Assembly: GCF_044324785.1 (NCBI RefSeq) | Contig: NZ_CP172127.1 | Reading direction: 5' to 3' (one strand) | Origin: Escherichia coli | GTDB lineage: Bacteria; Pseudomonadota; Gammaproteobacteria; Enterobacterales; Enterobacteriaceae | DNA: 64,000 bases | Shown: piece by piece, positions 6,345 to 59,435 of the stretch | How the letters are laid out: each line of letters opens with the position of its first letter | How positions within the stretch are numbered: the first letter of the stretch is position 1 | The notes under the pieces: generated by a model | The model's database searches: none | Told to the model about the DNA's origin: nothing | The model's input: the letters and a program-made list of their open reading frames with translations, nothing else | Made by a program: the position numbers and the translations under genes

Positions 6345-7016
6345 TTAGGGCTGATTTGCTGTATAGCGCACGAACGCCGGACGTTCCGAGGCCACCGCGT
6401 CCGCCCAGCGCGTTGGCTCCGGCAGACGATAGCCTTTCATGCAGCGTTGTACCCACGCCAGCGCGCTGTCCACGCTGACCCGATGGCCGGTAGTGATAAA
6501 CAACGGGTTACAGCGCGCTTTGCTGCGCCAGACCCAGGCCAGCTGCTCGCCTTTATCCATCAGAGGGGCCAGCGCGCCCGGTTCGCTGGAGAGCGGTTCG
6601 AATTTACCGCAGAGCCGTTTTTTCGCCACGCCAATGGTCGGCACATCCACCAGCAAACCAAAGTGGCTGGCGACGCCAAGACGGCGAGGATGCGAGATCC
6701 CGTGACCATCGACAAACACTAAATCCGGCTTTTGCGACAGCATCTCCCACGCTGCCAGCAGCGCAGGATATTCGCGGAAGGAAAGAAAACCTGGAATGTA
6801 AGGCATGGTGGTGGCGATGCGGGCCACTTTATACTCCACCAGCTCAAGCGAGGGGTATTTCAGCAGCACCATCGCCGCTCGCGTCACTTCTCCGCCCTGC
6901 TCAAACCCAACATCGGCTCCGGCGATCAGATCCGGCGGATCTTTATCGAGTCGATCCTCACGGATCACAGAAGAAGCCAGTTCAATTTGTTGAGCGCGTA
7001 ATGACGCGAGATCCAT
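6345..7016 (-). CDS. nfi: endonuclease V (deoxyinosine 3' endonuclease)
   Basis: 223 aa; conserved synteny downstream of hemE. Confidence 0.9.
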
Positions 7017-7025
7017 AATCGCTCC

Positions 7026-8090
7026 TTAGCGGTGATATTGTTCAGACAAGCGATGCACTGCCTCCACAAACACGCCAGCATGTTCTGGCGGCACATCCTG
7101 ATGAATGCCGTGACCAAGGTTAAAGACATGACCTTCGCCGTGACCGAAACCTGCAAGTATAGTCGCTACTTCTTCTTCAATGCGGGCTGGCGGCGCGTAC
7201 AGCATCGACGGATCCATATTGCCCTGCAACGCGACTTTATTGCCCACGCGGCGGCGCGCATCGGCGATGTCCGTTGTCCAGTCGAGGCCCAGCGCATCGC
7301 AACCGGTTTCTGCCATTGCTTCCAGCCACTGTCCGCCGCCTTTGGTAAACAGCGTGACCGGTACGCGGCGACCGTCGTTTTCACGCAGTAAACCATCAAC
7401 AATTCTATGCATGTAATAGAGCGAGAACTGTTGATAATCGCGCCCGGTAAGCACGCCGCCCCAGGTGTCGAAAATCATCACTGCCTGAGCACCGGCTTTA
7501 ATCTGCGCATTCAGATACAAAGTGACGCTTTTCGCCAGTTTATCGAGTAGCGCGTGCAGCGCCTGCGGATCGGCATACATCATTTTTTTGATCACGGTGA
7601 AGGCTTTGCTGCTGCCGCCTTCCACCATATAGGTCGCCAGCGTCCACGGGCTGCCGGAAAAACCAATCAGCGGCACTTCGCCTTTCAGTTTGCGACGAAT
7701 GGTACGCACCGCGTTCATCACGTAACCCAGCTCATCTTCCGGGTCCGGAATTGGCAGTTTATCGACGTCGGCTTTGCAGGTGACTGGCGAGGTAAAACGC
7801 GGACCTTCTCCGGCTTCAAAATAGAGCCCTAACCCCATCGCGTCCGGCACGGTGAGGATATCGGAAAAGAGGATCGCCGCATCCAGCGGGTAGCGACGCA
7901 GCGGTTGCAAAGTCACTTCGCACGCCAGCTCGGCGTTTTTGCACAGCGACATAAAATCGCCCGCCTGGGCGCGCGTGGCTTTATATTCCGGTAGATAGCG
8001 ACCCGCCTGGCGCATCATCCATACTGGAGTGACATCAACGGGCTGGCGCAGCAGCGCCCGCAGATAACGATCGTTTTTAAGTTCGGTCAT
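7026..8090 (-). CDS. hemE: uroporphyrinogen decarboxylase
   Basis: 354 aa; [37 protein letters not shown]-terminus typical of HemE. Confidence 0.95.
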
Positions 8091-8129
8091 TTTGGCTGTT
8101 CCTTAGTGCGTCAGGCGGTCAGTGTATCA

Positions 8130-8903
8130 TCACTCATACTCTGCCCGACACATCGCCACCGTATCTTCTATCAGACGGCGCGCTACGGTGCCGGGCGGCG
8201 GGAGTAACGGCAAATCGTCATAGCGATACCAGTTCGCCTCGAGCAATTCTTTCGGGTCGATAACGATCTCGCCGCTGTCGTATTCTGCCATAAACGCGGT
8301 CATTAAAGACTGAGGAAACGGCCACGGCTGGGAAGTCACGTAACGCAAGTTTTTAACTTTAATTCCGCTCTCTTCCATCACTTCCCGCGCGACAGCCTGC
8401 TCGAGGGTTTCGCCCACTTCGACGAATCCGGCAAGTACCGTATGGACACCGTTACGATGGCGGGTATGCTGGGCGAGGAGGATCGAATCATCGCGACGGA
8501 TGGCAACAATAATGCAGGGGGCGATTTGCGGATAGTAACGCTCACGGCAATGGCTGCACAGCATCGCCCATTCGGTTTTGCTTGGATACATTTCATGCCC
8601 GCAGTAACCACAGTATTTATGCGATCGGTAAAACTCCGCCAGTTGCACGCCACGTCCGGCCAGTTGAAACAGCCCAACATCGAGATCAATGACCTGACGT
8701 ACCGACCCCATATCGTGACGACGCTGCTGTTGTATTAACCAAACAGGTTCCCCCTGCCATTCGCCGATTTGTATTGCGCGCTGACCCACAAGATCGAAAT
8801 TTGCCGCTTCGCCATATGGCAATTCTCCCTTCGGCAACCATAATTTTTGTTCATGGCTGACGACCCACCAGCCGTGATCTAATTTTTCAATTATACGATC
8901 CAT
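8130..8903 (-). CDS. nudC: NADH pyrophosphatase (Nudix hydrolase)
   Basis: 257 aa; zinc-ribbon CGYCG...CSHC and Nudix box ([23 protein letters not shown]). Confidence 0.92.
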
Positions 8904-8997
8904 AGCTCTTGCACTACCTTTGCATCACTGGCATGTTTAACATGGTTTTTACATTTCTCACTGAGCAGTTTTTGAATACAAACTTGCGGAGTCAATC

Positions 8998-9474
8998 ATG
9001 CTTAACCAGCTCGATAACCTGACGGAGCGCGTCAGAGGAAGTAACAAACTGGTTGATCGCTGGCTACATGTACGTAAGCATCTGCTCGTGGCTTACTACA
9101 ATCTGGTTGGCATTAAGCCTGGCAAAGAATCGTACATGAGGCTAAACGAAAAAGCCCTTGATGATTTTTGTCAGAGCCTGGTCGATTACTTGTCTGCCGG
9201 GCATTTCAGTATTTATGAGCGCATTCTTCATAAGCTGGAAGGCAACGGGCAACTCGCGCGCGCCGCGAAGATTTGGCCGCAACTCGAAGCCAATACCCAA
9301 CAGATTATGGATTACTACGATTCCAGCCTGGAAACCGCCATCGATCACGATAATTACCTTGAGTTTCAACAGGTTTTATCTGACATCGGCGAGGCGCTGG
9401 AAGCACGCTTTGTGCTGGAAGATAAGCTGATTCTGCTGGTGCTTGACGCCGCCCGCGTCAAACATCCTGCTTGA
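8998..9474 (+). CDS. rsd: regulator of sigma D (anti-sigma70)
   Basis: 158 aa MLNQLDNLTERV...; divergent from nudC, upstream of thiC. Confidence 0.92.
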   Translation: MLNQLDNLTERVRGSNKLVDRWLHVRKHLLVAYYNLVGIKPGKESYMRLNEKALDDFCQSLVDYLSAGHFSIYERILHKLEGNGQLARAAKIWPQLEANTQQIMDYYDSSLETAIDHDNYLEFQQVLSDIGEALEARFVLEDKLILLVLDAARVKHPA

Positions 9475-46392: not shown

Positions 46393-46509
46393 GAAACGGA
46401 GCGGCACCTCTTTTAACCCTTGAAGTCACTGCCCGTTTCGAGAGTTTCTCAACTCGAATAACTAAAGCCAACGTGAACTTTTGCGGATCTCCAGGATCCG
46501 CTTTTTTTT
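46393..46509 (+). ncRNA. oxyS: OxyS small regulatory RNA
   Basis: GAAACGGAGCGGCACCTCTTTTAACCCTTGAAGTCACTGCCCGTTTCGAGAGTTTCTCAACTCGAATAACTAAAGCCAACGTGAACTTTTGCGGATCTCCAGGATCCGC followed by T8 terminator. Confidence 0.92.
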
Positions 46510-46548
46510 ATTCTACAGGCCCACAGCAAGAGAGCCTGATAGTAACAG

Positions 46549-47832
46549 TTACTCAATCCGATCTTTGACAATAAAGAAGTAACACAGCGCCCCGGTGAAC
46601 GTCACACAGGCCGCGATAACCAGCGCCAGATTAAACGAGTGCGTGGTATCCACTACCCAACCGGTTACGATCGGAGCAAAGGAAGCAAAAACAAAACTGC
46701 CAAAGTTTTGAATCCCGGCGATGGAAGCCACTTTTGTTTCTGACACCATCACCTGCACCAGTCCCCATGCAGATGTTCCCGCGAAATGCACGCAGAACAG
46801 CGCCATTGAGATAAACGCTACCGCCTGGGCTGGCGAGGAGGATTGCACGACCAGCAACGTGCCTAATGCCGACATCATCAAACCGCAGACAATAGCCGTT
46901 TTACGCGTCTTCGCCAGGTCGTAGCCTTTTTTCGCCAGCCGATCGACAACAATACCGTTAACCCACATCCCAACCGCCGCCGCGAGGAAAGGAATCGCCG
47001 CCACCCAACCGGTTTTCGCCAGACTGAAACCTTGTTCGGCCTGCAAATAACCGGGCAACCACGCGATGTAGAGCCAGCCTGTATAGTTGACGCCAGAGAA
47101 ACCTAAAATCATCCCCCAGGTTGTCCGATGCTTAAACAGCGCCAGCCACTCGCTAAATTGTAATTGTGGACGCGGTTTAACCGGCGCGGAGAGATAGGTC
47201 CGTTCTTCGTCGGTCAGGACAAACTGCGCCCGGTTGCGATACCACGCGTACCAACAGATCCCAACCAGAATCCCCGCCACGCCGATGATGACGAACATTG
47301 CCCGCCAGCCCCATGCCAGCTGCATCAATACAAGAGCAGGAGGCGCAATAGCCTGACCGATAACGGTAGATGAGTTAAAAATCCCCAGCGCCGTGCCGCG
47401 TTCTTTTTGCGCATACCAGTCGGTGATCGACTTTACTCCCGCAGGCATAAATGGCGCTTCGCCAATACTCAAACCAATACGCATTAAAATAAAGTGGCTA
47501 AAAGAATTAACCATTCCTGTTAATGCCTGCATTAATGACCAGAATATTAAGCCTGCGCCTAAAACTATTCGTGGGCCAAAGCGGTCTAGCAAAATACCGG
47601 AAGGGAGTTGTGAAAAACCATAAGACAGAGAAAAGGCAGAAAGCAAAACGCCAAATTCTGTCGCCGATAATCCTAACTCGCCACGAATCGCTTCGCCTGC
47701 CACGCTCAATGACGAACGGTCGAGGAAATTAACGATCCCCGCCATAAATAATAAAACCAGGGTCACTGTCTGAATACGACGAATCCGTTGCGGTTTATTA
47801 CCCGCAACACTGGTTGACACATCAACGTCCAT
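46549..47832 (-). CDS. MFS transporter, anion:cation symporter type (DgoT/ExuT/GudP-like acid-sugar permease)
   Basis: 427 aa, about 12 predicted TM helices; GLFLDRFG-like motif (LLDRFGPR); immediately downstream of the dehydratase gene. Confidence 0.85.
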   Translation of the reverse strand: MDVDVSTSVAGNKPQRIRRIQTVTLVLLFMAGIVNFLDRSSLSVAGEAIRGELGLSATEFGVLLSAFSLSYGFSQLPSGILLDRFGPRIVLGAGLIFWSLMQALTGMVNSFSHFILMRIGLSIGEAPFMPAGVKSITDWYAQKERGTALGIFNSSTVIGQAIAPPALVLMQLAWGWRAMFVIIGVAGILVGICWYAWYRNRAQFVLTDEERTYLSAPVKPRPQLQFSEWLALFKHRTTWGMILGFSGVNYTGWLYIAWLPGYLQAEQGFSLAKTGWVAAIPFLAAAVGMWVNGIVVDRLAKKGYDLAKTRKTAIVCGLMMSALGTLLVVQSSSPAQAVAFISMALFCVHFAGTSAWGLVQVMVSETKVASIAGIQNFGSFVFASFAPIVTGWVVDTTHSFNLALVIAACVTFTGALCYFFIVKDRIE

Positions 47833-48888
47833 TTTTAGCTCCTTGAGCGGAATTAATCGATTTGATGACTATTCAGAAAATAATTAAGCGAACCGTTATT
47901 ACCAGTTCCACAATGTGCCATCTTCCAGTCGTGCGACGGGGAGATACGCCGGGTCATACGGATATTTCGCCGCCAGTTTCTCATCGAAAGAAATACCCAG
48001 CCCCGGTTCATCGCCTGGGTGCATATAACCTTCATCGAAGCGCCAGCTATGCGGGAAGACTTCAAGCATTTGTTCGGAATAGCCCATGTACTCCTGAACG
48101 CCAAAGTTTGGCACCCAGAGGTCAAAATGCAGCGCCGCCGCATGACAAACAGGCGATAAATCTGAAGGGCCATGCGAACCGGTACGTACCTGATAAAGCG
48201 ATGCAAAATCGGCAATCCGTCGCATCCCGGTAATGCCGCCTGCATGGGTAATCGTCGTGCGAATATAGTCAATCAGCTGCTCTTCGATTAACTGCTTGCA
48301 GTCCCAGATACTGTTAAACACTTCACCGACCGCAATCGGCGTCACAGTATGCTGGCGAATCAGACGAAAACATTCCTGGTTCTCGGCAGGCGTCGGATCT
48401 TCCATCCAGAACAGGCGGTAATCCTCAATGCTCTTCCCAAAGCGCGCCGCTTCGATAGGAGTCAGGCGATGGTGCATGTCATGCAACAGATGTTCGTTAA
48501 AACCGAACTTATTACGCACCGCTTCGAATAACTTCGGCGTAAAATCGAGATACTTTTCTGAAGACCACAACTGCTCTTCTGGCCACAGGCCTTTGGTTGC
48601 CGGTTCATACGCCAGTCCTTTGCCCTTCGCCAGGCCATAAGTGGTTTGCATACCCGGTACACCACACTGCACACGAATCGCCTTAAAGCCCATCTGCTGG
48701 TGCTTTGCATAGTCTTCAAGGACTTCATCAATCGTACGCCCGGTGGTGTGGCAATAAACCATCACGCCTTCACGAGAAGCACCACCAAGCAGTTGATACA
48801 ATGGCATATTTGCCGCTTTTGCTTTGATATCCCACAACGCCATATCAATGGCAGAAATGGCTGACATCGTGACGGGGCCACGTCGCCA

Positions 48889-48897
48889 GTAAGCACC
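48889..48897. repeat. IS1 target-site duplication (left copy) GTAAGCACC
   Basis: Identical 9 bp at 49666..49674 directly flanking the other IS1 end. Confidence 0.95.
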
Positions 48898-48952
48898 GGT
48901 GATGCTGCCAACTTACTGATTTAGTGTATGATGGTGTTTTTGAGGTGCTCCA

Positions 48953-49228
48953 GTGGCTTCTGTTTCTATCAGCTGTCCCTCCTGTTCAGCTACTGACGGG
49001 GTGGTGCGTAACGGCAAAAGCACCGCCGGACATCAGCGCTATCTCTGCTCTCACTGCCGTAAAACATGGCAACTGCAGTTCACTTACACCGCTTCTCAAC
49101 CCGGTACGCACCAGAAAATCATTGATATGGCCATGAATGGCGTTGGATGCCGGGCAACTGCCCGCATTATGGGCGTTGGCCTCAACACGATTTTACGTCA
49201 CTTAAAAAACTCAGGCCGCAGTCGGTAA
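48953..49228 (+). CDS. insA: IS1 InsA
   Basis: 91 aa [43 protein letters not shown]... zinc-finger/HTH protein. Confidence 0.95.
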
Positions 49229-49650
49229 CCTCGCGCATACAGCCGGGCAGTGACGTCATCGTCTGCGCGGAAATGGACGAACAGTGGGGCTATGTCGGGG
49301 CTAAATCGCGCCAGCGCTGGCTGTTTTACGCGTATGACAGTCTCCGGAAGACGGTTGTTGCGCACGTATTCGGTGAACGCACTATGGCGACGCTGGGGCG
49401 TCTTATGAGCCTGCTGTCACCCTTTGACGTGGTGATATGGATGACGGATGGCTGGCCGCTGTATGAATCCCGCCTGAAGGGAAAGCTGCACGTAATCAGC
49501 AAGCGATATACGCAGCGAATTGAGCGGCATAACCTGAATCTGAGGCAGCACCTGGCACGGCTGGGACGGAAGTCGCTGTCGTTTTCAAAATCGGTGGAGC
49601 TGCATGACAAAGTCATCGGGCATTATCTGAACATAAAACACTATCAATAA
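49147..49650 (+). CDS. insB: IS1 InsB frame (expressed as InsAB' transposase by -1 frameshift)
   Basis: 167 aa ORF overlapping insA 3' end; A6C slippery motif TTAAAAAACTC at about 49198. Confidence 0.93.
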
Positions 49651-49665
49651 GTTGGAGTCATTACC

Positions 49666-49674
49666 GTAAGCACC
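49666..49674. repeat. IS1 target-site duplication (right copy) GTAAGCACC
   Basis: Matches 48889..48897. Confidence 0.95.
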
Positions 49675-50269
49675 TTTATAAAAGAATTGCCAGATATCTT
49701 CGATACGGCTGGCATCGCGGCCAATTAATTGTGGACAAAGATGATCTTTCAGATAAGAAGCGACCGACAATTCGCGCCCATTTAACGTGGCATCTCCTAA
49801 TCCACAAAGTCCGCTTTCAGTGGTTATTTTAAGCGTAACGAAATTACGTCCTGGGCAAGTAACAAAAACATCTGCAGCAATAATTTTCATTATTGCAATC
49901 TCCTGTGTTGTAAATAGACGCTTCAAACTTAATTTTACGCCTACTACCATACAAGAGAGAAAGAGCGATTATTCAACCGTGATCACATTAAAAACAAAAA
50001 TTCCCACCGAGGAACAAGAATATCCTCAAATTTCATCCACACTATTAATTACTATTGTTAAAACAACACGTTAAATAATCACATAACAAATTCCTCTAAG
50101 GAAGAGAGTCATAACAATAACAAATGATAATCATATTTTACTTAATTCAATACGTATCGATATGTTTATTTTAAAAAGATTTTTCGGAATGAGAGATGAA
50201 AAGAAGATACACAAACAGGAAGAAATACGATTAATATTGGTCGCGGTAAGGGTAGCCGTTCCTCCCTTC

Positions 50270-50376
50270 CGCAACCCATTAACCCTTGAAGTCACAGTCT
50301 ATTTCAGGCATTTCTCAACTCAAAATAACGAAGGCCAATGTGAACTTTGTGGCTCTCCAGGATCCGCTTTGTTTTC
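50270..50376 (+). ncRNA. degenerate oxyS-like sequence (pseudo-oxyS, 3' two-thirds incl. terminator hairpin)
   Basis: AACCCTTGAAGTCAC...TTTCTCAACTC.AAATAAC.AAGGCCAATGTGAACTTTGTGGCTCTCCAGGATCCGCTTTGTTTT aligns to oxyS 46410..46509 at roughly 80 percent identity. Confidence 0.7.
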
Positions 50377-50378
50377 CA

Positions 50379-51857
50379 TCAAACAACGGAACTCAGCGCA
50401 CTGGCAACCTGTTTAAAGCGAGCAAACCGTCGCCTGAGCATGTGTGCTTTTTCTACATTCGGTTCAAGACGAATCACGTTGAGATGCGTGGCCTTCATGG
50501 CCTGTTTGAATCCAGAATAAGCCCCTCCTCCTACTGCCGCACACATTGCAGCCGCTCTACAACCTGACTGTTCAATATCGACAATTTCAAGAGGCATGTT
50601 GCTGGCATCACAAAACATCTGCATCCAGATTCTGGAATGCGTTGGCCCGCCAGAGAAACGAATCGTTTGCAATGACTTATCAATCTCAATAAGACGGTCC
50701 TGATGCAACAAATGAGAAAAGACAATGCCCTGATAAATCGCGTACACCAAATCTTCTCTTTTATGATGCCCACACAGCCCCAAAAATCCCCCGCTTAATG
50801 CCTCATGGTAATTCGAGCCAAACAACCACGGGAAAAAGAGAATATCATTCTGCTTCTCATACCCTCGTTCCACCCACTCATTAATCACCCGATAGCTGTC
50901 AGGAAGATCCGGTAAAAATTGCTGCAAGAACCATGTCAAATTACTGGCTGATGTAGGGCTTCCCTCATGGGCGAAAAATGTACCTGGAATGCTAAATTTC
51001 CCCCATACATAGGGATAATCAGAAGGAATAATGCGATCAAAGATACGCGTTGCAATTGACCAGGTGCCAGCAACCGCACTTAACGTTGTACTGTCATAGA
51101 TGCCAGAAGTGAGCGCCGCACCAACGACATCAAAAACACCACCAAAAACAGGCGTTCCGGCGAGAAGCCCACATTGGCTGGCTGCTTCAGATGTCACAAC
51201 CCCTGCTAAATCAGCGGAGCCAATAATATCGGGAACCTTACCCGCAACTTCCTTAATCTCAAATAGGCGAAAAAGTTCAGCATCATAAGCACTGGTATAT
51301 TGATTATAAAAATTACTGCCTGAAATATTGGTTTCTTCACAAGCCAGTTTGCCAGTAAGCCGTGAACGTATGTAATCATGAACCATCAAAATGGTTCCGA
51401 TGCGGCCATAATTGTCAGTCTCATGTTTTTTCAACCAATGCAATAGTGCTACAGGGTGCGATGGCCAGAGCTGTTGCAGACTACGGTGATAGCTTTCGCG
51501 GTCAATTCCTTGTTCTTTCCAGCTTGCAACCAGTTGTTGTGCGCGAGAATCAGAGGAAACAATGCCGTATCGTAAGGGCTTACCTTGCCGGTCGAGCAGG
51601 TACAAACCTTTACCATGAGCAGAAAAACTGATGCCATCAATCTGACTCGCAGTAATATTGTTCTCTGACATCGACAGTGAAATGACCTGGCACGTTACCT
51701 TCCATAACGCCTCCATGTCGCGTTCGCAAAAACCAGGACATGGGCTTAACAGAGGTAACACTTGCGAAGAGACACCTATTTCACGTCCTTCTGCCGTATA
51801 AATTCCCGCTTTGGTTTCTGTACCACCTAAATCGACACCAATAAAATACCGCTCCAT
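50379..51857 (-). CDS. FGGY-family carbohydrate kinase, L-xylulokinase (LyxK/SgbK)-like
   Basis: 492 aa; N-terminal GVDLGGT, conserved HEGSPTSASNLTWF, FFPWLFGSN, GGPTHSRIWMQMF blocks resembling E. coli LyxK. Confidence 0.85.
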   Translation of the reverse strand: MERYFIGVDLGGTETKAGIYTAEGREIGVSSQVLPLLSPCPGFCERDMEALWKVTCQVISLSMSENNITASQIDGISFSAHGKGLYLLDRQGKPLRYGIVSSDSRAQQLVASWKEQGIDRESYHRSLQQLWPSHPVALLHWLKKHETDNYGRIGTILMVHDYIRSRLTGKLACEETNISGSNFYNQYTSAYDAELFRLFEIKEVAGKVPDIIGSADLAGVVTSEAASQCGLLAGTPVFGGVFDVVGAALTSGIYDSTTLSAVAGTWSIATRIFDRIIPSDYPYVWGKFSIPGTFFAHEGSPTSASNLTWFLQQFLPDLPDSYRVINEWVERGYEKQNDILFFPWLFGSNYHEALSGGFLGLCGHHKREDLVYAIYQGIVFSHLLHQDRLIEIDKSLQTIRFSGGPTHSRIWMQMFCDASNMPLEIVDIEQSGCRAAAMCAAVGGGAYSGFKQAMKATHLNVIRLEPNVEKAHMLRRRFARFKQVASALSSVV

Positions 51858-51873
51858 GATCCCTCCTTAGTTT

Positions 51874-52737
51874 CTAAATATTATCCCAGCCGGCAAGGCG
51901 CATTTTCTCTTCAATCCATTGACGTGCATGAATAATTTCTAATAGAGGTTCCGTCGCTTTTTCTGTCCACATTTCTATCAGAAACGTTCCGCGATAATTA
52001 AGATTACGCAGAATCTTAAATAATTTAATAAAATCTACACACCCTTCACCAAAAGGAACGTCACGAAATTGCCCTGGAGAATCAGGCGTTACTGGGTACG
52101 TATCTTTAAGATGGATTGCGGCAATTCGATCAATCCCCTTTACCAGCTCACTTTCCAGTTCATTACCCCATGCGGTCAGATTGCCAACATCCGGATAAAC
52201 GGTAAACCAAGGGGAATTAATTTTTGTATCCAGGACTTTCCATTTACTAATAGAATTAATAAATGGCGTATCCATGATTTCTACAGCACACATAACTTGT
52301 GCCGCTGCGGCCTGTTCAGCTGTCCAGGCCATCGCATCTTCAAACCAGGCGATAGTTTCTTCATTCTGCGGCTCATAATAAACGTCATAGCCTGCCAGTT
52401 GGATTGTTCGAATCCCCAAATCCTGCGCCAGGCGTAACGCCTTCAACATAATCGTACGCGCCTGCTGACGAGTATCTCTATCATGGCTACCAAATGGAAA
52501 ACGCCGGTGAGCAGACAGGCACATTGTCGGAATACGGATCCCCGTTTGCTGAATGGCGCTAATAAGCTCCATACGCTCGGTGAGCGACCAGTCCAGGCGG
52601 GCGAGTCGTTCATCATTCTCATCTACCGACATCTCAACAAAATCAAAACCGCAAGATTTAGCCAGGGCTAGTTTCTCTACCCAACTGGTATTCCTGGGTA
52701 GCGCTTTTTCATAAATACCTAACGGGTGGCGTCGCAT
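51874..52737 (-). CDS. L-ribulose-5-phosphate 3-epimerase (UlaE/SgbU family, TIM-barrel)
   Basis: 287 aa; PLGIYEKALP...GFDFVEMSVDE.DERL.RLDWS...MCLSAHRRFP.GS...IQLAGYDVYY motifs nearly colinear with UlaE. Confidence 0.88.
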   Translation of the reverse strand: MRRHPLGIYEKALPRNTSWVEKLALAKSCGFDFVEMSVDENDERLARLDWSLTERMELISAIQQTGIRIPTMCLSAHRRFPFGSHDRDTRQQARTIMLKALRLAQDLGIRTIQLAGYDVYYEPQNEETIAWFEDAMAWTAEQAAAAQVMCAVEIMDTPFINSISKWKVLDTKINSPWFTVYPDVGNLTAWGNELESELVKGIDRIAAIHLKDTYPVTPDSPGQFRDVPFGEGCVDFIKLFKILRNLNYRGTFLIEMWTEKATEPLLEIIHARQWIEEKMRLAGWDNI

Positions 52738-53783
52738 TATTTTCCCTCACGAGTGATCAATTGTTGTTGAAAGATTTTCCGGCTCTTATTCATGTCACGC
52801 TGCAACTGCCATTTTTGTTTGATGAATTTAAATGCCAATGCGGCGATCAATGTGATCCCCCATACCGCCAGATTGAAATGCAAACTAATTCCCAACAGAC
52901 TAAGGCCGGTAGCAATAACCTGAAGCACAAGTAAGGCACAAAAAACATGACTGACTTTACCCGCCCCACCGAATGGATCTGTGCCTCCCAATACAATTGC
53001 AAGAACCGTCAAGAGCAAATAGGAATCGCCATAGCCCATACGCGCCGAATTAAATCGCGCGAGCATAATAAGACCTGCTAATACACACAACATGCTGGAT
53101 ATAGCATATATAGCAATTAATACGCGGTCGGTGCGAATACCGCTAAACCATGTGGCGTTAATATTACTGCCACACATATAAATCGTTTTTCCCGTACGGG
53201 TTTTGCCGAGGAACAGAGCTAAAGCAACGGTGGTGACGATAAAAATCATCATCGGTACTGGGATCCCCATGATAACTTCAGACCCAATACTGCGGACTAC
53301 TGGTGGCATACCACTTAAAGCTGCCCCCTTAGTCAGGTAAATACCGATACCACTAATAATGGTCATGCTACCCAATGTGACCAAAATAGGGTGAGCGCCT
53401 ATATGAGAAATAATTAACCCAGTAATAGCTCCAATGATGATGGCAATAAGCATCGCCCCGACAATAGCCAGGAAGAGCCAAAACAACTGGCTACCTGTAG
53501 ATGCATCTGCGGGTACATATTGAATCAACACCCAGGCCATAAACAGGCTGGTCAGATTCGCAGTACCGATGATTGCCAGATTAAGCCCCCCGCTCAACAT
53601 CGGTATAAACATCGCAAACGTGAGCAACCCAAGCTCTGGCAATTGAAATGCAATGCTCAGAAAAGTATTGTCGGTGAAAAAACGCCCCGGCATTGCCAGA
53701 CTAAATAACACCACCGCAATAAAACATATTGATAATAAGCCTGAACTGGTACCATCTAGTGGAAAAAATATCCGCTTGTTCAT
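52737..53783 (-). CDS. sugar ABC transporter permease (RbsC/YjfF-like)
   Basis: Polytopic membrane protein; start taken at MNKRIFF (ORF extends to 53813, overlapping upstream permease). Confidence 0.8.
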   Translation of the reverse strand: MNKRIFFPLDGTSSGLLSICFIAVVLFSLAMPGRFFTDNTFLSIAFQLPELGLLTFAMFIPMLSGGLNLAIIGTANLTSLFMAWVLIQYVPADASTGSQLFWLFLAIVGAMLIAIIIGAITGLIISHIGAHPILVTLGSMTIISGIGIYLTKGAALSGMPPVVRSIGSEVIMGIPVPMMIFIVTTVALALFLGKTRTGKTIYMCGSNINATWFSGIRTDRVLIAIYAISSMLCVLAGLIMLARFNSARMGYGDSYLLLTVLAIVLGGTDPFGGAGKVSHVFCALLVLQVIATGLSLLGISLHFNLAVWGITLIAALAFKFIKQKWQLQRDMNKSRKIFQQQLITREGK

Positions 53784-53796
53784 TTCGATCCTCCCG

Positions 53797-54789
53797 TTAG
53801 ACGAAACCAACATCAGTTTCTTTACGCTTTTTGTAATGGGTCACACAAATCGCCGAGACAATAACCACCCCAATAACGATATTGACGAAATAACTCGAGA
53901 CACCAATCAAATTAAGGCCGTTTTTAAGAATACCGATAAGAAATACGCCCATAAGCGTACCAATGACCGTACCACGTCCGCCTGATAAACTGGCACCGCC
54001 CAATACCGCTGCAGCCAGCACATCCAACTCTCCGCCAACCAATGCATTCGGCACAACTTCACTCATACGGTAAGCTTGCAGCATTCCACCAATTGCTGCA
54101 GCGGCACCAAGATAACCGTAAGCAAACAGATAAATTAGCGACACCCGAATCCCAATACGTCTTGCTGATTCGGTATTCCCTCCCACGGCATAAAGCTGAC
54201 GCCCAATATGGGTTTTGTTCATTATCACCCACGTCAGAAATGCCATTCCCAGCATAACCACTAACGGTAATCCGATCTGGTAATCTTCTCCGCCAAATTC
54301 AAAACTCAGGAAAGAACGCTGCGTAATCCACCAATCCGGTAAATCGTAAATACTGTGACCATTAGTCAACCACATCAACATACCGAACAGTAACGACTGC
54401 ATACTAATCGTAATGATGATAGAAACGACATTAAGGTAATAAATAAGAATAGCGTTTATCAAACCAAAAATGATGCCAAAAAAAACAGCAAACACCAGGC
54501 AGAAAAATGGATTTGATAGCGTTTCATTAAGCAGTAACGACGCCACAACATATTGCACAACCGAAGCTACTGCTGCAAAAGAGATATCAATTCCGCCAGT
54601 AACCAATACGACAAATAATCCGAGGGCGAAAATACCCGTTACGGCATAACTCTCCGAGAGATCGAGCAAGTTCTGTATTGATAAAAACTCATCGCTCATG
54701 ATGGAAAAAAATACCAGCATGAGAACAATGACCCATCCTAACCAAGCTTCGACTGAACGAGGAAACCGCAGCCGCATAAAGCTAACCAT
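53797..54789 (-). CDS. sugar ABC transporter permease (RbsC/YtfT-like)
   Basis: 330 aa polytopic membrane protein; start overlaps ATPase stop. Confidence 0.8.
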   Translation of the reverse strand: MVSFMRLRFPRSVEAWLGWVIVLMLVFFSIMSDEFLSIQNLLDLSESYAVTGIFALGLFVVLVTGGIDISFAAVASVVQYVVASLLLNETLSNPFFCLVFAVFFGIIFGLINAILIYYLNVVSIIITISMQSLLFGMLMWLTNGHSIYDLPDWWITQRSFLSFEFGGEDYQIGLPLVVMLGMAFLTWVIMNKTHIGRQLYAVGGNTESARRIGIRVSLIYLFAYGYLGAAAAIGGMLQAYRMSEVVPNALVGGELDVLAAAVLGGASLSGGRGTVIGTLMGVFLIGILKNGLNLIGVSSYFVNIVIGVVIVSAICVTHYKKRKETDVGFV

Positions 54790-56299
54790 TAATCACCTCC
54801 GCCAACTGCTGCTCGGTATAATTCGAAGGCAACAGCTCATGAATAATCTTTCCGCGCTTCATATGAAAAATACGATCGCAGTTATAATAAGCTTCTGGTG
54901 CTTCATCAGTAATTAATATCACTGAAATACCCACACCTGAAAGCCGATGAATAAGCTGGTAAATACTATCTTTTGCGCCAATATCTACACCTACCGTTGG
55001 CGCATCCAGAATTAAAACCTTAGGTCGTGTTAAAATCCATTTAGCCAGGACAACCTTTTGTTGATTGCCACCAGATAGCGTTGAAAGTGGATTATTTGGA
55101 TCGGTGACCTTAATATCCAAATCCTGGATCCACTCCTTGACTAAGGTTTCTTTTCGATTTTCATCAATAAACCCCGATGGCGTCTTTAAACGATCCAGAA
55201 TCGAGAGCACCATATTATCGCTGATAGATTGGGGTAATACGGCCCCCAGTGTCAGGCGATCTTCTGAAACATATGCTATTCCCAGTTTTACCGCATGCGT
55301 GTTGTCTTTAATTGTAACGGGCTTACCTTCAAGATAAATATCACCACTATCTGCTCGAGTAATACCGAAAAGACTCAATGCTAATTCGGTTCTCCCCGCA
55401 CCAAGTAAACCACACAATCCCAGAACCTCGCCTTGGTGTAGTTTTAGAGATACATCTTCAAATTGCCCTTTTCTGCATAATTTTTTTAGTTCAAGAACTA
55501 CTTTACCTTCAACGCTATTTGGTAGTTTTTTCTGGTGGACTATAGTTTTTCCGGTCATTAACTCAGTAATATCGCCTGGAGAAAGTTGATTGGCAGCCCA
55601 CGTTCCAATTATCTCTCCATCACGGATGACCGTAATTCGGTCTGAGATTTCCTTAACTTCATCAAGGCGGTGGCTAACAAAAACTACGGTAATATTTTTA
55701 TCGCGTAAGTAATTCACTGTGCGTAGTAATTGATTAACTTCAGTGCGCGTCAATGACGCCGTTGGCTCGTCCATGATGACTAACCGGGCATCGGCAATCA
55801 GAGCCCGGCAAATAGCGACCTGTTGGCGTTGTGCAATCGGCAAATGTTGTACTAACGCATCAGGATCGAGATTGAATTCCAGTTCCTGAATTATTTTCTG
55901 TGATACATCTCGAAGTTGTTTTTTTCTGTGCAGCCCTAAATATCCCTTCAGGTTGTATTCAAAAGCGATATTTTCAGCCACAGAAAGATTTGGGAATAAA
56001 GAAAGATCCTGATATATCACCTGAATACCCAGTTCCCGAGCTTTATCAGGAGAAAGACGAGTCCAGGACTTACCATCTATAATAATTTCACTTCCCGAAT
56101 CAGGAACATAAACACCACACAGCGTTTTGATCAGAGTACTTTTACCACACCCATTCGCACCAGCAAGACAATGAACCTCACCTTTATTTAAGGTAAGATT
56201 GATATTTTTTAGAGCCCTATGGCCACCGAAACTTTTCGTTAGTGACCTTAGCGTCACTAATGGTTGCTCCGCATTCTTCTCTATAATATGAGGCATCAT
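54782..56299 (-). CDS. sugar ABC transporter ATP-binding protein (duplicated NBD, RbsA/YtfR-like)
   Basis: 505 aa; Walker A GANGCGKST in first NBD, LSGG signature in the second (LSGGNQQK), two NBDs. Confidence 0.88.
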   Translation of the reverse strand: MMPHIIEKNAEQPLVTLRSLTKSFGGHRALKNINLTLNKGEVHCLAGANGCGKSTLIKTLCGVYVPDSGSEIIIDGKSWTRLSPDKARELGIQVIYQDLSLFPNLSVAENIAFEYNLKGYLGLHRKKQLRDVSQKIIQELEFNLDPDALVQHLPIAQRQQVAICRALIADARLVIMDEPTASLTRTEVNQLLRTVNYLRDKNITVVFVSHRLDEVKEISDRITVIRDGEIIGTWAANQLSPGDITELMTGKTIVHQKKLPNSVEGKVVLELKKLCRKGQFEDVSLKLHQGEVLGLCGLLGAGRTELALSLFGITRADSGDIYLEGKPVTIKDNTHAVKLGIAYVSEDRLTLGAVLPQSISDNMVLSILDRLKTPSGFIDENRKETLVKEWIQDLDIKVTDPNNPLSTLSGGNQQKVVLAKWILTRPKVLILDAPTVGVDIGAKDSIYQLIHRLSGVGISVILITDEAPEAYYNCDRIFHMKRGKIIHELLPSNYTEQQLAEVING

Positions 56300-56362
56300 A
56301 ATATTCCTGAATACGACTAAAGGAATTCCGGGTCAAATTTGACCCGGTGATTTACGGTAAAA

Positions 56363-57367
56363 TTACAAGCCTAACTTCACTAAATGTCGTGTATTTTCAA
56401 GATCGAGCTTTTCTGGATTATCACTATAAATAGTGTTGTTATTAACCTTGATCTCGCCCATATCACCGATTTTTACACCGTCTTTAATAGGTTCACCGTT
56501 CATCATTGCCGTCGCAACCTGGACAAAAACCTTACCCGCAATCATAGGGTTTGAAATATATCCCCCATCAATGGCGCCTTTTTCGAGTAGCTTAATTCCC
56601 TGACCTGGAGTGAAGGTTCCAAAAACGCAAATTGCGTCATTTTTCTTCCGCTTATCAATAGCACGCCCCGCACCAATTGGTCCTTGTGAACCAAATGACA
56701 TAATGCCTTTAAGATCTTTATATTTAGACATTAAATCGTTCGTCGTGCGCATTGAATCATCCACCGATTCAGCAACACCAAAACGATCTTCAACCAACGT
56801 CATATTTGGATAATGTTCTTTTTGATAAGCAATCGCGGCATTGGCCCAGTCATTTACCAAAGGCACGGTCAGACTGCCGACAAACATGGCGTATTTACCT
56901 TCTTCGCCCATGCACTTCGCCATATCTTTCATATGATTGGCACCCATTGTCTGGGTATTTAACAACTCAAAATCCCAATCTGCATTTTTTTGATCTGGTG
57001 ATTCGTGGGTAATAACTTTAATACCGGCTTCTTGTGCACGCTTAAGTACAGGTTCAAGAACCTTTGCATCGTTAGGAACAACCCCAATAACATCCACTTT
57101 TCGTGCAATTAAATCTTCAATCGCCCGAACCTGTTCAGCTGGATCTGCCGTTGTAGGGCCGACCTGCCATGCATCAACCCCCAATAGTTTTCCTTCATCT
57201 TTAATGCCTTGTTCCATCACATTAAACCAGGGAATGCCACCGACTTTTACTACTACCCCCATCGTAAAAGGTTTATTCGCTTTTTGTGATGTTACAGTCT
57301 GATCAGCCCATGCAGCAGTGGAAGATAATACGGTAGCAATAAGGCAGGGTAAGATTAATTTTTTCAT
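56363..57367 (-). CDS. periplasmic sugar-binding protein (PBP type I, RbsB/YtfQ-like)
   Basis: 334 aa; signal peptide MKKLILPCLIATVLSSTAAWA; first gene of ABC operon. Confidence 0.82.
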   Translation of the reverse strand: MKKLILPCLIATVLSSTAAWADQTVTSQKANKPFTMGVVVKVGGIPWFNVMEQGIKDEGKLLGVDAWQVGPTTADPAEQVRAIEDLIARKVDVIGVVPNDAKVLEPVLKRAQEAGIKVITHESPDQKNADWDFELLNTQTMGANHMKDMAKCMGEEGKYAMFVGSLTVPLVNDWANAAIAYQKEHYPNMTLVEDRFGVAESVDDSMRTTNDLMSKYKDLKGIMSFGSQGPIGAGRAIDKRKKNDAICVFGTFTPGQGIKLLEKGAIDGGYISNPMIAGKVFVQVATAMMNGEPIKDGVKIGDMGEIKVNNNTIYSDNPEKLDLENTRHLVKLGL

Positions 57368-57390
57368 CGTAATTTCCTTAAGAAATAGTT

Positions 57391-57430
57391 CAGGTGTCAG
57401 GAAAACTCGATATAATATCGACCTGACTAT
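57391..57430. promoter_or_regulatory. palindromic candidate operator/promoter upstream of ABC operon
   Basis: Perfect 15-bp palindrome TCGATATAATATCGA flanked by GTCAGG / CCTGAC half-sites, 30-70 bp upstream of SBP start; contains TATAAT. Confidence 0.4.
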
Positions 57431-57489
57431 TTATATAATTTATAATCCCTTAGGCATTGATTAATAATTTAGACAATAAATAATGCCTA

Positions 57490-58299
57490 TTATTTATCAA
57501 CCTCCACAATGTTTAATTGTGGAAATTGTGTTCGATACCGAGTATCTGTACAAACATTAGTCACCAGAATATCGATTTCATCCAGCGTGCATATTTTACT
57601 AAATGCATACTGTTCAAACTTACTGGAGTCGACCAGCAATATTTTTTGTCCTGACACCTGAAGCATCACCTGTTTAAGTCTGGCATTAATTTCACTGCCA
57701 TCGCGGACACCATTCCCCAGATTCAACCCCTGGCATGAAAAGAAAAAACTGTTGATTTGAAAATTTCGGATCGCCCCCTCTGCAACCGGGCCATGAAAAT
57801 CATCATGTCGCTCAGAATACTCACCACCGATACCAATAATTCGAACTCGATCACGGCAAGCCAACGCCTGAATTATCCGTAATGAATTTGTAACTACAGT
57901 AACATCTATATCGGGAATTTGACGAGCTAAAAACCAACAAGTACTACTGTTATCCATTAAAATACAATCACCAGGGTGAATAAATTGCAATGCGGCCTTC
58001 GCAATTCTGGCTTTTATATCAGGATTTTCTTCAGTCCGTTTACGGAATGATTCCGCACGATCGATACTATTATCTTGCCACGCATTATCGGCGAGCATAA
58101 CCGGAGCGCTATCAGATGAATCCAGAGCGACCGCGCCACCAAAGCTACGGATTAACTTTTTGTTGCGCTCCAGTACCGTTAAATCCCGACGAATTGTCTC
58201 AGGAGACGCTTTAAATAATCGTGATAATTCTGTTACCTGTACAGCACCTTGTTTTTGTACATGTGCGCATATCATTTTATGGCGCTCTGCCTGCAACAT
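57490..58299 (-). CDS. DeoR-family transcriptional regulator (sugar-phosphate sensing type)
   Basis: 269 aa; N-terminal HTH (VTELSRLFKASPETIRRDLTVLE) and C-terminal DeoR-C sugar-phosphate binding domain. Confidence 0.85.
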   Translation of the reverse strand: MLQAERHKMICAHVQKQGAVQVTELSRLFKASPETIRRDLTVLERNKKLIRSFGGAVALDSSDSAPVMLADNAWQDNSIDRAESFRKRTEENPDIKARIAKAALQFIHPGDCILMDNSSTCWFLARQIPDIDVTVVTNSLRIIQALACRDRVRIIGIGGEYSERHDDFHGPVAEGAIRNFQINSFFFSCQGLNLGNGVRDGSEINARLKQVMLQVSGQKILLVDSSKFEQYAFSKICTLDEIDILVTNVCTDTRYRTQFPQLNIVEVDK

Positions 58300-58752
58300 A
58301 GTATCGGTCCGTTATTATCAAATTAGCATGCTTATATAATTAACTGTTCCCTCATAAAATAAAGTGATAGGAATCAAGATTCATTTTATAAATATAATCG
58401 CAAACAGAAATGGTGATCTTTACCACAAATTAAATTGAGAATATTCTACTATTGGACATTTTTTTGAGATATACGTCACTAAATAAGCTTTATTCTGTCA
58501 CCTGACGAAAAATTTAAATGCAAAAACAAAAATAATCGGGCATAGCAATCTCTTCCATTCATGACCGAATACGCCCGAATAAAACCGTTTACGCCCACTT
58601 ACCCTCTTTCATTGCCTTCTTACATGCCTTGAATATTTTACATTTCTTATATTCAGCGTAATTTAGGCAACATAATTTACGAGCAAAAATAGCCAAAACC
58701 CAAAAGTTAAAGTTTATTTATATAATACATACAGATTATCGTGGAGTTAAAA

Positions 58753-59435
58753 ATGGATACGCTAAAGGAAAAAGTTCTTGCTGCGAATTTATCACTACCC
58801 CTTCATCAGTTAGTGACGTTTACCTGGGGAAATGTTAGCGGTATTGATCGCGAAAAAGGTGTCATGGTTATTAAACCTTCTGGGGTCGAATACAGCCAAA
58901 TGGGCAGGTGGTAGTGGATTTACAAAGTGGTGAAGTTATTGATGGACACAGGAAACCCTCTTCAGACACAGATACTCATCTGGCGCTATACCGTGCTTTC
59001 CCGGATATTGGAGGTATCGTTCATACCCATTCCCGACACGCCACAATATGGGCTCAGGCCGGAAAAGATCTCACGGCCTTTGGGACAACCCATGCAGATT
59101 ATTTCTACGGCACTATCCCCTGTACACGCCCCATGAAGGATGACGAAATTAATGGACAATATGAATATGAAACGGGGCGAGTGATTATTGAAACGTTCAG
59201 GCAACGAGAAATATCTCCCGCTGACATTCCGGCTGTTTTAGTAAACAGTCATGGCCCCTTTGCCTGGGGAACTGATCCCGCGAACGCCGTGCATAACGCC
59301 GTTGTACTTGAAGAAATCGCCTATATGAATCTCTTTACACAACAGCTACACCCCCATCTTACGGCTATTCAACAGCCTCTACTGGATAAGCATTTTTTAC
59401 GCAAGCATGGTGCCAATGCTTATTACGGGCAGTAA
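58753..59435 (+). pseudogene. L-ribulose-5-phosphate 4-epimerase (AraD/SgbE/UlaF class II aldolase family), apparent frameshift
   Basis: Frame 1 [51 protein letters not shown] then stop at 58910..58912; continues in another frame [21 protein letters not shown]...[14 protein letters not shown]...[18 protein letters not shown]. Confidence 0.8.

Follow-up and report, generated by a model that had tools for sequence, protein, structure and literature searches.

The window analyzed here (the whole 64-kb stretch of Escherichia coli DNA) carries, next to oxyS, a two-gene unit consisting of a dehydratase gene, manD, and a gene for an MFS permease that follows on the same strand after a gap of 66 bp. 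The order of the two genes and their position at oxyS had been recognized in the initial annotation, as had a good Shine-Dalgarno motif ahead of the start MKIIAADVF, and all three are borne out: oxyS and the permease gene are convergent, with 46 bp between oxyS and the permease stop codon, and AGGAGA lies 8 nt 5' of the manD ATG, with AAGGAG being found 6 nt 5' of the permease ATG. The upstream edge of the unit, previously placed at 49950, has to be moved, as this position is the first in-frame ATG of a mechanically derived ORF and the true manD start is at 49890. The features are as follows.

46393..46502, plus strand: oxyS (Rfam match, 139.5 bits)
46549..47832, minus strand: ACS-family MFS permease gene, 427 aa, intact (ORF plus profile and homology matches)
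47833..47898, minus strand: 66-bp spacer between manD and the permease gene, with the permease Shine-Dalgarno motif AAGGAG (sequence)
47899..48888, minus strand: manD 3' fragment, codons 76–404 plus stop (404-aa ManD when joined to the 5' fragment)
48889..48897, no strand: target-site duplication copy GGTGCTTAC (direct repeat flanking IS1)
48898..49665, plus strand: IS1, 768 bp, opposite in strand to manD
48953..49228, plus strand: insA of IS1 (ORF)
49147..49650, plus strand: insB of IS1 (ORF)
49666..49890, minus strand: manD 5' fragment, codons 1–75, whose final 9 bp (49666..49674) are the second duplication copy
49899..49904, minus strand: manD Shine-Dalgarno motif AGGAGA (sequence)
49944..49987, minus strand: rsp-type promoter signature TGTGA-N28-TTGTATGGTAG (one match in 64 kb)
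50246..50368: oxyS-like copy (relic)
50379..59435, same strand as the module: FGGY kinase, two pentulose-phosphate epimerase genes, ABC transporter and DeoR regulator

IS1 disrupts manD

The manD reading frame is not continuous in this genome, being split after codon 75 by a 768-bp IS1. The element was recognized by its length of 768 bp, terminal inverted repeats, insA and insB frames and a target duplication of 8–9 bp; here, the ends read GGTGATGCTGCCAACTTACTGAT... and ...AATAAGTTGGAGTCATTACC, both ORFs are present, and the 9-bp sequence GGTGCTTAC flanks the insertion as a direct repeat. RefSeq labels matching elements as IS1 family, and there is a single IS1 copy within the window. Removal of IS1 and one repeat copy yields a continuous 404-codon gene. 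Over all of its 1215 nt, it is identical to the copy carried by three E. coli draft genomes (L028–L030), whose loci are otherwise 99.97–100% identical and show an empty site and an intact manD. Since such near-identical drafts without IS1 carry exactly the repaired gene, the insertion is a recent event. In this strain, manD is an IS1-disrupted pseudogene and the module is inactivated; polarity exerted by IS1 probably silences the downstream permease gene as well. Of the proposed dehydratase-permease operon, both genes were found, but the dehydratase is broken, a state previously hinted at only in the expression 'repaired gene'. The reading of the locus is corrected accordingly: the dehydratase is an IS1-disrupted pseudogene and not part of a functioning orphan operon.

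The dehydratase and the permease

The repaired 404-aa protein matches the ManD equivalog profile NF043051 with 732.8 bits (cutoff 550) and NF011654 with 807 bits (cutoff 430), and 369 of its 404 residues (91%) are identical to those of CFT073 RspA (PDB 4IL2). R147, Y159, D212, H214, E238 and E264 are invariant across 18 aligned ManD/RspA sequences. They comprise the three Mg2+-binding carboxylates located where barrel strands 3–5 end (D212, E238, E264), the Tyr-Arg base dyad (Y159/R147) and the acid His (H214). For the metal ligands, we take the roles to be those of D210/E236/E262 in the Novosphingobium ManD structure; the roles of the Tyr-Arg pair as general base and of the His as general acid in ManD were reportedly established by Rakus et al. 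in 2007. The alignment, inspected for a loss of enolase-superfamily catalytic or metal-binding residues, revealed none. On these sequence criteria, the protein is a ManD-subgroup member of the enolase superfamily, in agreement with its earlier designation as RspA/ManD-like. RspA-type ManDs are said by Wichelecki et al. (in 2014) to be kinetically poor, with a deletion having no phenotype.

For the permease, the best NCBIfam match is TIGR00893, at 269 bits, which is below the curated cutoff of 395, and with the next family at 165 bits. The protein is 56% identical to K-12 LgoT over its full length (E=7e-172), and its best match among solved structures is DgoT (6E9N, E=2e-56), followed by VGLUT and sialin. 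Equivalents of DgoT D46, R47, Y79, R126, E133 and N393 are kept, and the residues aligning with D46, R47 and E133 (D38, R39 and E125) are invariant in 18 orthologues. In DgoT, these correspond to the TM1 Asp and TM4 Glu of the proton relay and to the carboxylate Arg in TM1 (PMC10149257); roles of ACS binding-site residues, with reference to LgoT, were also taken from bioRxiv 10.64898/2026.05.20.726482. At the seven binding positions, the permease has F, R, Y, T, F, (G)T, N, LgoT has Y, R, Y, S, F, (G)T, N and DgoT has Y, R, Y, Q, Q, S, N. Permease and LgoT thus agree at five of seven positions, including the unusual Phe at the position of DgoT Q264 (bioRxiv 10.64898/2026.05.20.726482), and differ at positions 1 (Y to F) and 4 (S to T). 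With LgoT and DgoT as characterized homologues, rather than MFS families unrelated to acid sugars, the earlier assignment to the anion:cation-symporter (ACS) branch of the MFS is upheld by homology and conserved residues. A large homologue search with the permease returned only entries named 'MFS transporter' and gave no functional lead; distant homologues (42–43% identity) from Allorhizobium and from a Bryobacteraceae MAG lie among unrelated genes and were left out of the context argument.

One permease residue has changed in this lineage: G122S replaces a glycine that is kept in DgoT, LgoT and 17 orthologues. Decay following the loss of manD was considered as the cause and rejected, because the exact permease sequence with this allele occurs on 271 public contigs, and also next to the intact manD of L028–L030.

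Promoter, rsp-cluster context and distribution

No promoter upstream of manD passed a simple sigma-70 consensus scan; it was comparison with rspA, whose promoter has been mapped, that revealed its position. The signature TGTGA-N28-TTGTATGGTAG, which combines a CRP-like half-site with the −35 region and with the right half-site for RspR, has its one match in the 64-kb window at −54 to −97 from the manD start, and none of 100 shuffled sequences produced a match. E. coli rspA has it upstream, as do all native manD and permease genes examined in rsp clusters, and in 22 of the other loci compared it is present at each rsp-type promoter. The module has kept the rsp-cluster promoter signature. The RspR box, ATACnnGTAT, and the rspA transcription start site are known from previous work (PMC8249747). 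Over the −35 region of the module, the box reads TCTCTTGTAT and agrees with the full box at 6 of 8 specified bases, the right half being exact and the left half reading TCTC in place of ATAC. The exact box is present in native manD-proximal promoters, and native permease-proximal promoters likewise lack the left half. K-12, the strain in which genomic SELEX for RspR was performed, is devoid of the module. Since the promoter signature is absent from the 66-bp spacer between manD and the permease gene, co-transcription appears likely, such that a single rsp-type promoter would drive manD and then the permease gene. This promoter is probably CRP-dependent and possibly subject to RspR control in trans, the latter being uncertain because of the TCTC left half-box.

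The term 'orphan', applied to the module in the initial annotation, is correct insofar as the unit itself includes no regulator, kinase or aldolase. It is an orphan only locally, however, as its orthologues in other Enterobacteriaceae belong to the rsp cluster, together with rspB, ydfI, ydfJ and rspR, of which ydfI encodes a fructuronate reductase and rspR the GntR repressor RspR (YdfH). At 12 enterobacterial loci, a permease orthologue (82–89% identical) adjoins ManD inside an rsp cluster that also holds RspB (NF007489, 648 bits), a fructuronate reductase (NF011611, 666 bits), a GntR regulator and YdfG. A different arrangement is found in Rouxiella, where a 70%-identical permease homologue is preceded by an UxuR/ExuR-like regulator and followed by an UxuA-type mannonate dehydratase (TIGR00695, 644 bits), with no dehydrogenases alongside. 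The cassette probably derives from the rspA-plus-permease part of the enterobacterial rsp cluster; in an ancestor of Escherichia, it would have displaced the 54-bp spacer between oxyS and argH, with later losses in lineages such as that of K-12.

Of 5426 complete E. coli genomes, 1860 (34%) carry the 2.8-kb module, CFT073 among them. The module is covered over its full length in 1860 of about 1868 carriers, and rspAB is found in at least 4922 of the 5426 genomes. Both module genes are under strong purifying selection (dN/dS 0.008–0.035 for manD and the permease gene across Escherichia, at dS up to 0.39). The module is a common, ordinary and already annotated accessory unit of E. coli that provides a second RspA/ManD copy.

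Proposed function and competing explanations

Four known systems invite comparison. With RspA and the rsp cluster, the module shares the high amino-acid identity, the catalytic residues, the promoter signature and, in other enterobacteria, cluster membership of both of its genes. It differs in its location (oxyS/argH versus ynfA/Qin for rspA), in its gene order (manD is followed by the ACS permease gene, rspA by that for RspB), in being accessory where rspAB is near-universal, and in the diverged left half of its RspR box; moreover, module ManD forms a separate paralogous clade that stands apart from rspA in the tree, with saturated dS to the latter. LgoT (YjjL), the L-galactonate:H+ symporter of the ACS family, has the same proton-coupling Asp/Glu as the permease, but is linked to an L-galactonate oxidoreductase (lgoD), whereas the module permease has mannonate dehydratases as its partners, and these come from two unrelated families. 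The dgo operon (DgoT, DgoD, DgoK, DgoA, DgoR) likewise combines an ACS permease with an enolase-superfamily hexonate dehydratase that forms a 2-keto-3-deoxy acid, yet the permease is only about one third identical to DgoT, and the module brings along neither a kinase nor an aldolase nor a regulator and must therefore rely on KdgK/Eda and on regulators encoded elsewhere. The earlier suggestion that the dehydration product is left to KdgK and Eda was in this respect reasonable. Finally, uxuAB/uxuR accounts for the same reaction, D-mannonate to 2-keto-3-deoxy-D-gluconate (KDG), and UxuA is the partner of the permease homologue in Rouxiella; however, UxuA belongs to an unrelated protein family and E. 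coli uxuAB lacks a dedicated mannonate permease.

Taken together, residues and gene neighborhoods make it fairly probable that the intact module is an uptake plus first-enzyme cassette for a C6 sugar acid, feeding D-mannonate and/or L-gulonate into KDG. The permease would act as an LgoT-like proton symporter importing D-mannonate and/or its C5 epimer L-gulonate, and ManD, in a Mg2+-dependent reaction with Tyr159/Arg147 as base and His214 as acid, would convert D-mannonate to KDG, which would then reach central metabolism via KdgK and Eda. L-gulonate would have to be converted to D-mannonate beforehand by RspB, which we take to be L-gulonate 5-dehydrogenase, and YdfI of the rsp locus. Such a route, from L-gulonate via D-fructuronate and D-mannonate to KDG, has been established experimentally in H. 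influenzae, where the binding protein of the transporter binds both L-gulonate and D-mannonate (PMC5788505). Sequence cannot separate the two substrates, because they differ only at C5. It also counts against this reading that a third mannonate dehydratase has no obvious use in a species possessing UxuA and, as a rule, RspA.

A narrower explanation would have the module serve L-gulonate only, with the permease importing it, RspB/YdfI making D-mannonate and the extra ManD adding capacity, an arrangement useless without the rsp locus. This would agree with native orthologues adjoining RspB and fructuronate reductase, with a pocket resembling the one in LgoT, which transports a hexonate of L configuration, with the near-universal occurrence of rspAB in E. 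coli, and with the presence of the module in CFT073, a strain reported to catabolize L-gulonate via RspB/RspD. Nonetheless, we regard it as unlikely: the Rouxiella permease homologue is paired just with UxuA and a regulator, the Escherichia module includes no dehydrogenase although both of its genes are strongly constrained, and the two C5 epimers are indistinguishable at the sequence level.

Less likely still, and in our view improbable, is that the dehydratase acts on another acid sugar or has an RspA-like signaling role ('starvation sensing', removal of a lactone signal), with the permease importing the compound concerned. Module ManD indeed carries clade-specific substitutions, K/E156Q and M161L close to the catalytic Tyr159 and six others elsewhere, and one database entry names the protein 'bifunctional D-altronate/D-mannonate dehydratase'; activities in the ManD subgroup range from D-mannonate to D-gluconate dehydration to none. 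Against this, the 140–200 loop region is otherwise identical to that of RspA proteins (91–94% identity overall), the permease family is independently paired with UxuA, and the co-localized fructuronate reductase yields D-mannonate.

That the module is evolutionary debris, functionless in all carriers, might be concluded from its independent lesions, namely IS1 here and in strain 1916D18, the nonsense codon E64* in strain N3, the remnant that is left of manD in Citrobacter sp. R56 and a shortened Shigella flexneri database entry of 385 aa. With the low dN/dS over such dS values, the full-length state of nearly all carriers and a permease gene still intact in Citrobacter R56, where manD is lost, this is very improbable.

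The absence of a cognate kinase or regulator, also stated in the initial annotation, holds for the two-gene unit; what went unmentioned is the 9-kb kinase island with its DeoR regulator, which begins 490 bp upstream of manD but is unrelated according to population data. The island occurs in 146 of 5426 genomes versus 1860 of 5426 for the module, and in most carriers (B7A, CFT073, E. whittamii) argH lies directly next to manD. Because the oxyS-like relic is absent from module-only genomes (B7A, 1916D18), it belongs to the island, and the notion that a duplicated oxyS brackets the module was rejected. The kinase island is a separate acquisition, independent of the module. To view both as one catabolic island, on account of their adjacency, their common strand and their shared concern with sugars or derivatives, is hardly credible in light of these frequencies, of the 490-bp AT-rich spacer, manD promoter signature and relic that intervene, and of KDG not being a substrate of the FGGY pentulose kinase pathway.

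Extending the preferred reading of a D-mannonate and/or L-gulonate uptake cassette, we tentatively propose, as a conjecture that may well fail in one part or another, that the permease is the hitherto unassigned dedicated D-mannonate/L-gulonate:H+ symporter of Enterobacteriaceae and thereby a sixth ACS specificity of E. coli beside DgoT, LgoT, ExuT, GarP and GudP; that the oxyS-argH cassette is a part of the rsp regulon that has moved and still responds in trans to CRP/RspR; and that carriers such as CFT073 would differ from non-carriers such as K-12 in how well they scavenge these acids in the gut. None of the present findings is surprising to a specialist. Their value lies in a concrete substrate hypothesis, cheap to test, for a permease found in about one third of E. 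coli genomes and in many enterobacteria, and in the connection drawn between this permease and the rsp ('starvation-sensing') cluster, which is itself poorly understood. If true, the hypothesis would supply a missing transporter for the L-gulonate/D-mannonate branch of hexuronate metabolism and would explain one strain-to-strain difference in carbon source use.

Gene order and the state of manD in the window

The window carries an E. coli chromosome segment with the order yijD-fabR-sthA-oxyR-oxyS, accessory region, argH-argB-argC; both module genes, manD and the permease gene, are already annotated in RefSeq. The features of this site are:

46393..46502, + strand: oxyS, convergent with the permease gene, 46 bp from its stop codon
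46549..47832, − strand: intact MFS permease gene (ORF, 427 aa)
48888..47899, − strand: manD 3' piece, codons 76–404, upstream of the permease gene
48898..49665: IS1, 768 bp, between the two manD pieces, insA/insB on the strand opposite manD
49890..49666, − strand: manD 5' piece, codons 1–75, same strand as and upstream of the permease gene
50379..59435: accessory island with FGGY kinase, L-ribulose-5-P 3-epimerase, four ABC genes, DeoR regulator and a divergent araD-like 4-epimerase

As described in the initial annotation, a dehydratase-then-permease pair on one strand adjoins oxyS, and a good Shine-Dalgarno sequence precedes the MKIIAADVF start (in the present analysis AGGAGA, with 8-nt spacing); the proposed end coordinate 49950, a mechanical ORF start, gives way to the real manD start at 49890. 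The IS1, the only copy in the 64-kb window, is flanked by a 9-bp target duplication, GGTGCTTAC, and removing the element with one repeat copy yields a repaired manD of 404 uninterrupted codons. Three E. coli drafts (L028–L030), 99.97–100% identical to the window across 10.7 kb, lack IS1 and carry a manD equal to the repaired gene at 1215/1215 nt; the insertion is thus recent and strain-specific. Only the first 75 native residues of ManD remain ahead of the element, the fragment behind it has neither a start codon nor the N-terminal domain, and the window holds one of the rare broken module copies. Since a motif search of the window found no copy of the promoter signature in the 66-bp manD–permease spacer, the permease gene is most likely driven from the manD promoter. 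IS1 is classically polar on downstream genes and, by analogy, has probably silenced the permease in this strain as well. At the other end of the module, the permease gene has no terminator of its own in the 46 bp (46503..46548) before the 3' end of convergent oxyS, and the oxyS hairpin read on the permease strand is not followed by a T-run, so that module transcription could conceivably run antisense through oxyS.

Identity of the dehydratase and the permease

The repaired protein scores 733 bits against the NCBIfam ManD equivalog (cutoff 550), is identical to RspA of E. coli CFT073 (PDB 4IL2) at 369/404 residues and shares 91.6% identity with Pectobacterium ManD (PDB 4E4F). Loss of the metal-binding or catalytic residues of the enolase superfamily, which would have refuted the initial annotation, is not what the alignment of 18 ManD/RspA sequences indicates: R147, Y159, D212, H214, E238 and E264 are unchanged in all of them, and, judging by the Novosphingobium enzyme, we take these six to be the subgroup's base dyad, metal ligands and general acid. 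In this alignment no more than eight positions of the module ManD are clade-specific, with Q156 and L161 flanking Tyr159. The dehydratase is a ManD-subgroup member, present in the window as a pseudogene.

For the permease, clustering with MFS families outside the acid-sugar group would likewise have counted against the initial annotation; the top family model is TIGR00893 (ACS/D-galactonate transporter subfamily; 269 bits, under the 395-bit cutoff, with the runner-up family at 165 bits), the best solved relative is DgoT, and identity to the L-galactonate:H+ symporter LgoT of K-12 amounts to 56%. The DgoT proton relay (D46, E133) and carboxylate-binding residues (R47, Y79, N393) are kept in the alignment, and the seven substrate-coordinating positions read F,R,Y,T,F,(G)T,N, compared with Y,R,Y,S,F,(G)T,N in LgoT and Y,R,Y,Q,Q,S,N in DgoT. 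The permease is listed here as an apparent ACS-family member and LgoT paralogue of putative specificity. Codon 122 (47467..47469), a TM4 position with the conserved Arg on one side and the proton-coupling Glu on the other, encodes Ser in the window lineage and Gly in DgoT (G130), LgoT (G141) and 17/17 other orthologues; the Ser122 allele occurs on 271 public contigs, beside an intact manD in all three contexts checked (L028–L030).

Relationship to the rsp cluster

A scan for permease homologues, with one genome per species, gave 21 loci. In Pluralibacter, Enterobacter, Klebsiella, Raoultella, Lelliottia, Siccibacter, Atlantibacter and two Citrobacter-like genomes, a permease orthologue (82–89% identical) adjoins ManD (91–94% identical) inside the native rsp locus, which is ordered ynfE...ynfC-speG-ynfB, permease and ManD (either order), RspB (NF007489, 648 bits), YdfJ-like transporter, the fructuronate reductase YdfI (NF011611, 666 bits), GntR regulator, YdfG and Dcp. 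In E. coli, the rsp locus reads rspB-rspA-ynfA-ynfB-speG and is without such a permease; rspAB occurs in at least 4922 of 5426 E. coli genomes. The oxyS-argH module is therefore a satellite copy of one part of the rsp cluster, rspA plus permease. The view of an orphan module without partners holds locally for the two-gene unit, but not for its orthologues, which lie among RspB, YdfI and a GntR regulator. One Enterobacter locus (strain kpr-6, L008; 2..457 and 6709..9284) has two ManD genes. UxaC, a GPH-family symporter and YdfI come after the first; the second is paired with a permease that branches in the tree as the nearest outgroup of the Escherichia module. This locus may be a snapshot of the origin of the two-gene unit.

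The composite motif TGTGA-N28-TTGTATGGTAG matches the window once, at 49944..49987 (0/100 shuffles match), and recurs ahead of rspA in E. coli and at all native rsp-type promoters, twice in permease-first species (before the permease and before manD); the module has kept an rsp-type promoter. In E. coli rspA, the conserved block coincides in part with the -35 region and with the RspR operator ATACnnGTAT (PMC8249747). The module's box has an exact right half and TCTC, not ATAC, as its left half, and native permease-proximal promoters likewise lack ATAC; RspR control via this predicted half-box is plausible. In seven permease-first loci (L009–L013, L016, L023; e.g. L009 7888..7931 and 9347..9390), every manD-proximal copy has the complete RspR palindrome ATACTTGTAT and every permease-proximal copy the right half only (xTTCTTGTAT), which suggests two operator classes within one regulon.

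Distribution, neighbouring island and proposed role

The module (3-kb query, two genes) is present at ≥80% coverage in 1860/5426 complete E. coli genomes, and the order oxyR-oxyS-permease-manD-argH is found in B7A, CFT073, Escherichia sp. and E. whittamii. Relative to K-12, the module and its upstream region (~3.1 kb) replace a 54-bp oxyS-argH spacer, and the T-run of the oxyS terminator immediately precedes the left edge. Purifying selection acts strongly on both genes (dN/dS 0.008–0.035; dS up to 0.39, E. coli versus E. whittamii). Module ManD forms a separate clade in the tree, and divergence of its gene from native rspA is saturated (dS ~2.1). By these data, the module is old in Escherichia, accessory and normally functional. 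Other independent manD lesions are E64* in strain N3 and another IS1 in strain 1916D18; in Citrobacter sp. R56 (L021 7207..9284), manD is near-completely deleted to short remnants at the oxyS-argH site, while the transporter (92% identical, intact) and the promoter motif are kept. This pattern suggests that, in the presence of UxuA and RspA, the dehydratase can be spared more readily than the permease.

The 9-kb island, whose ABC genes encode two permeases, an ATPase and a binding protein, occurs in only 146/5426 genomes versus 1860 for the module, always between manD and argH; the module is a unit apart from it. The island gene set looks like an L-xylulose/pentulose-type route to D-xylulose-5-P. 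Its araD-like L-ribulose-5-P 4-epimerase gene (about 58750..59435) has a 10-bp deletion at 58906/58907 relative to strain N3, a frameshift that leaves a 175-aa C-terminal ORF and a second pseudogene in the strain's accessory region. Directly downstream of the FGGY kinase gene, a diverged second oxyS copy (50246..50368, +; Rfam OxyS 41 bits, gathering score 75, E=6e-6; ~82% identity to oxyS across 91 nt, several stem pairs broken) is found only in island carriers (L001, L002), being absent from module-only genomes, and is probably a relic from the island's donor. In module-only genomes, a REP-like element lies between the manD promoter region and argH (B7A, L003 5430..5510; weak Rfam naRNA4 match, 27.9 bits, E=0.18); in the window, the oxyS-like relic and the island replace it.

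D-mannonate, its C5 epimer L-gulonate, or both, are the likely substrate on three grounds: the enzyme family, the native neighbours RspB and fructuronate reductase, and an association with UxuA, a mannonate dehydratase of an unrelated fold. In Rouxiella badensis, a UxuR/ExuR-like regulator precedes and UxuA (644 bits) follows a permease of 70% identity, with no dehydrogenases found in the neighbourhood; this pairing is an independent association with a mannonate dehydratase. The LgoT-like pocket would fit hexonates with the C2 configuration of L-galactonate, which D-mannonate and L-gulonate both share. Experiments in H. influenzae have established the route L-gulonate -> D-fructuronate -> D-mannonate -> KDG, and both acids are recognised there by the binding protein of the transporter (PMC5788505). 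With KdgK and Eda supplied from elsewhere in the genome, the two module genes would suffice for D-mannonate; L-gulonate use would require RspB and YdfI in addition. The arrangement can be likened to a minimal entry module for acid sugars of the dgo or lgo type, with regulators and downstream enzymes supplied from elsewhere. What is new here is the rsp-cluster and promoter link, the UxuA association, the predicted LgoT-like binding pocket and the recent IS1 event.
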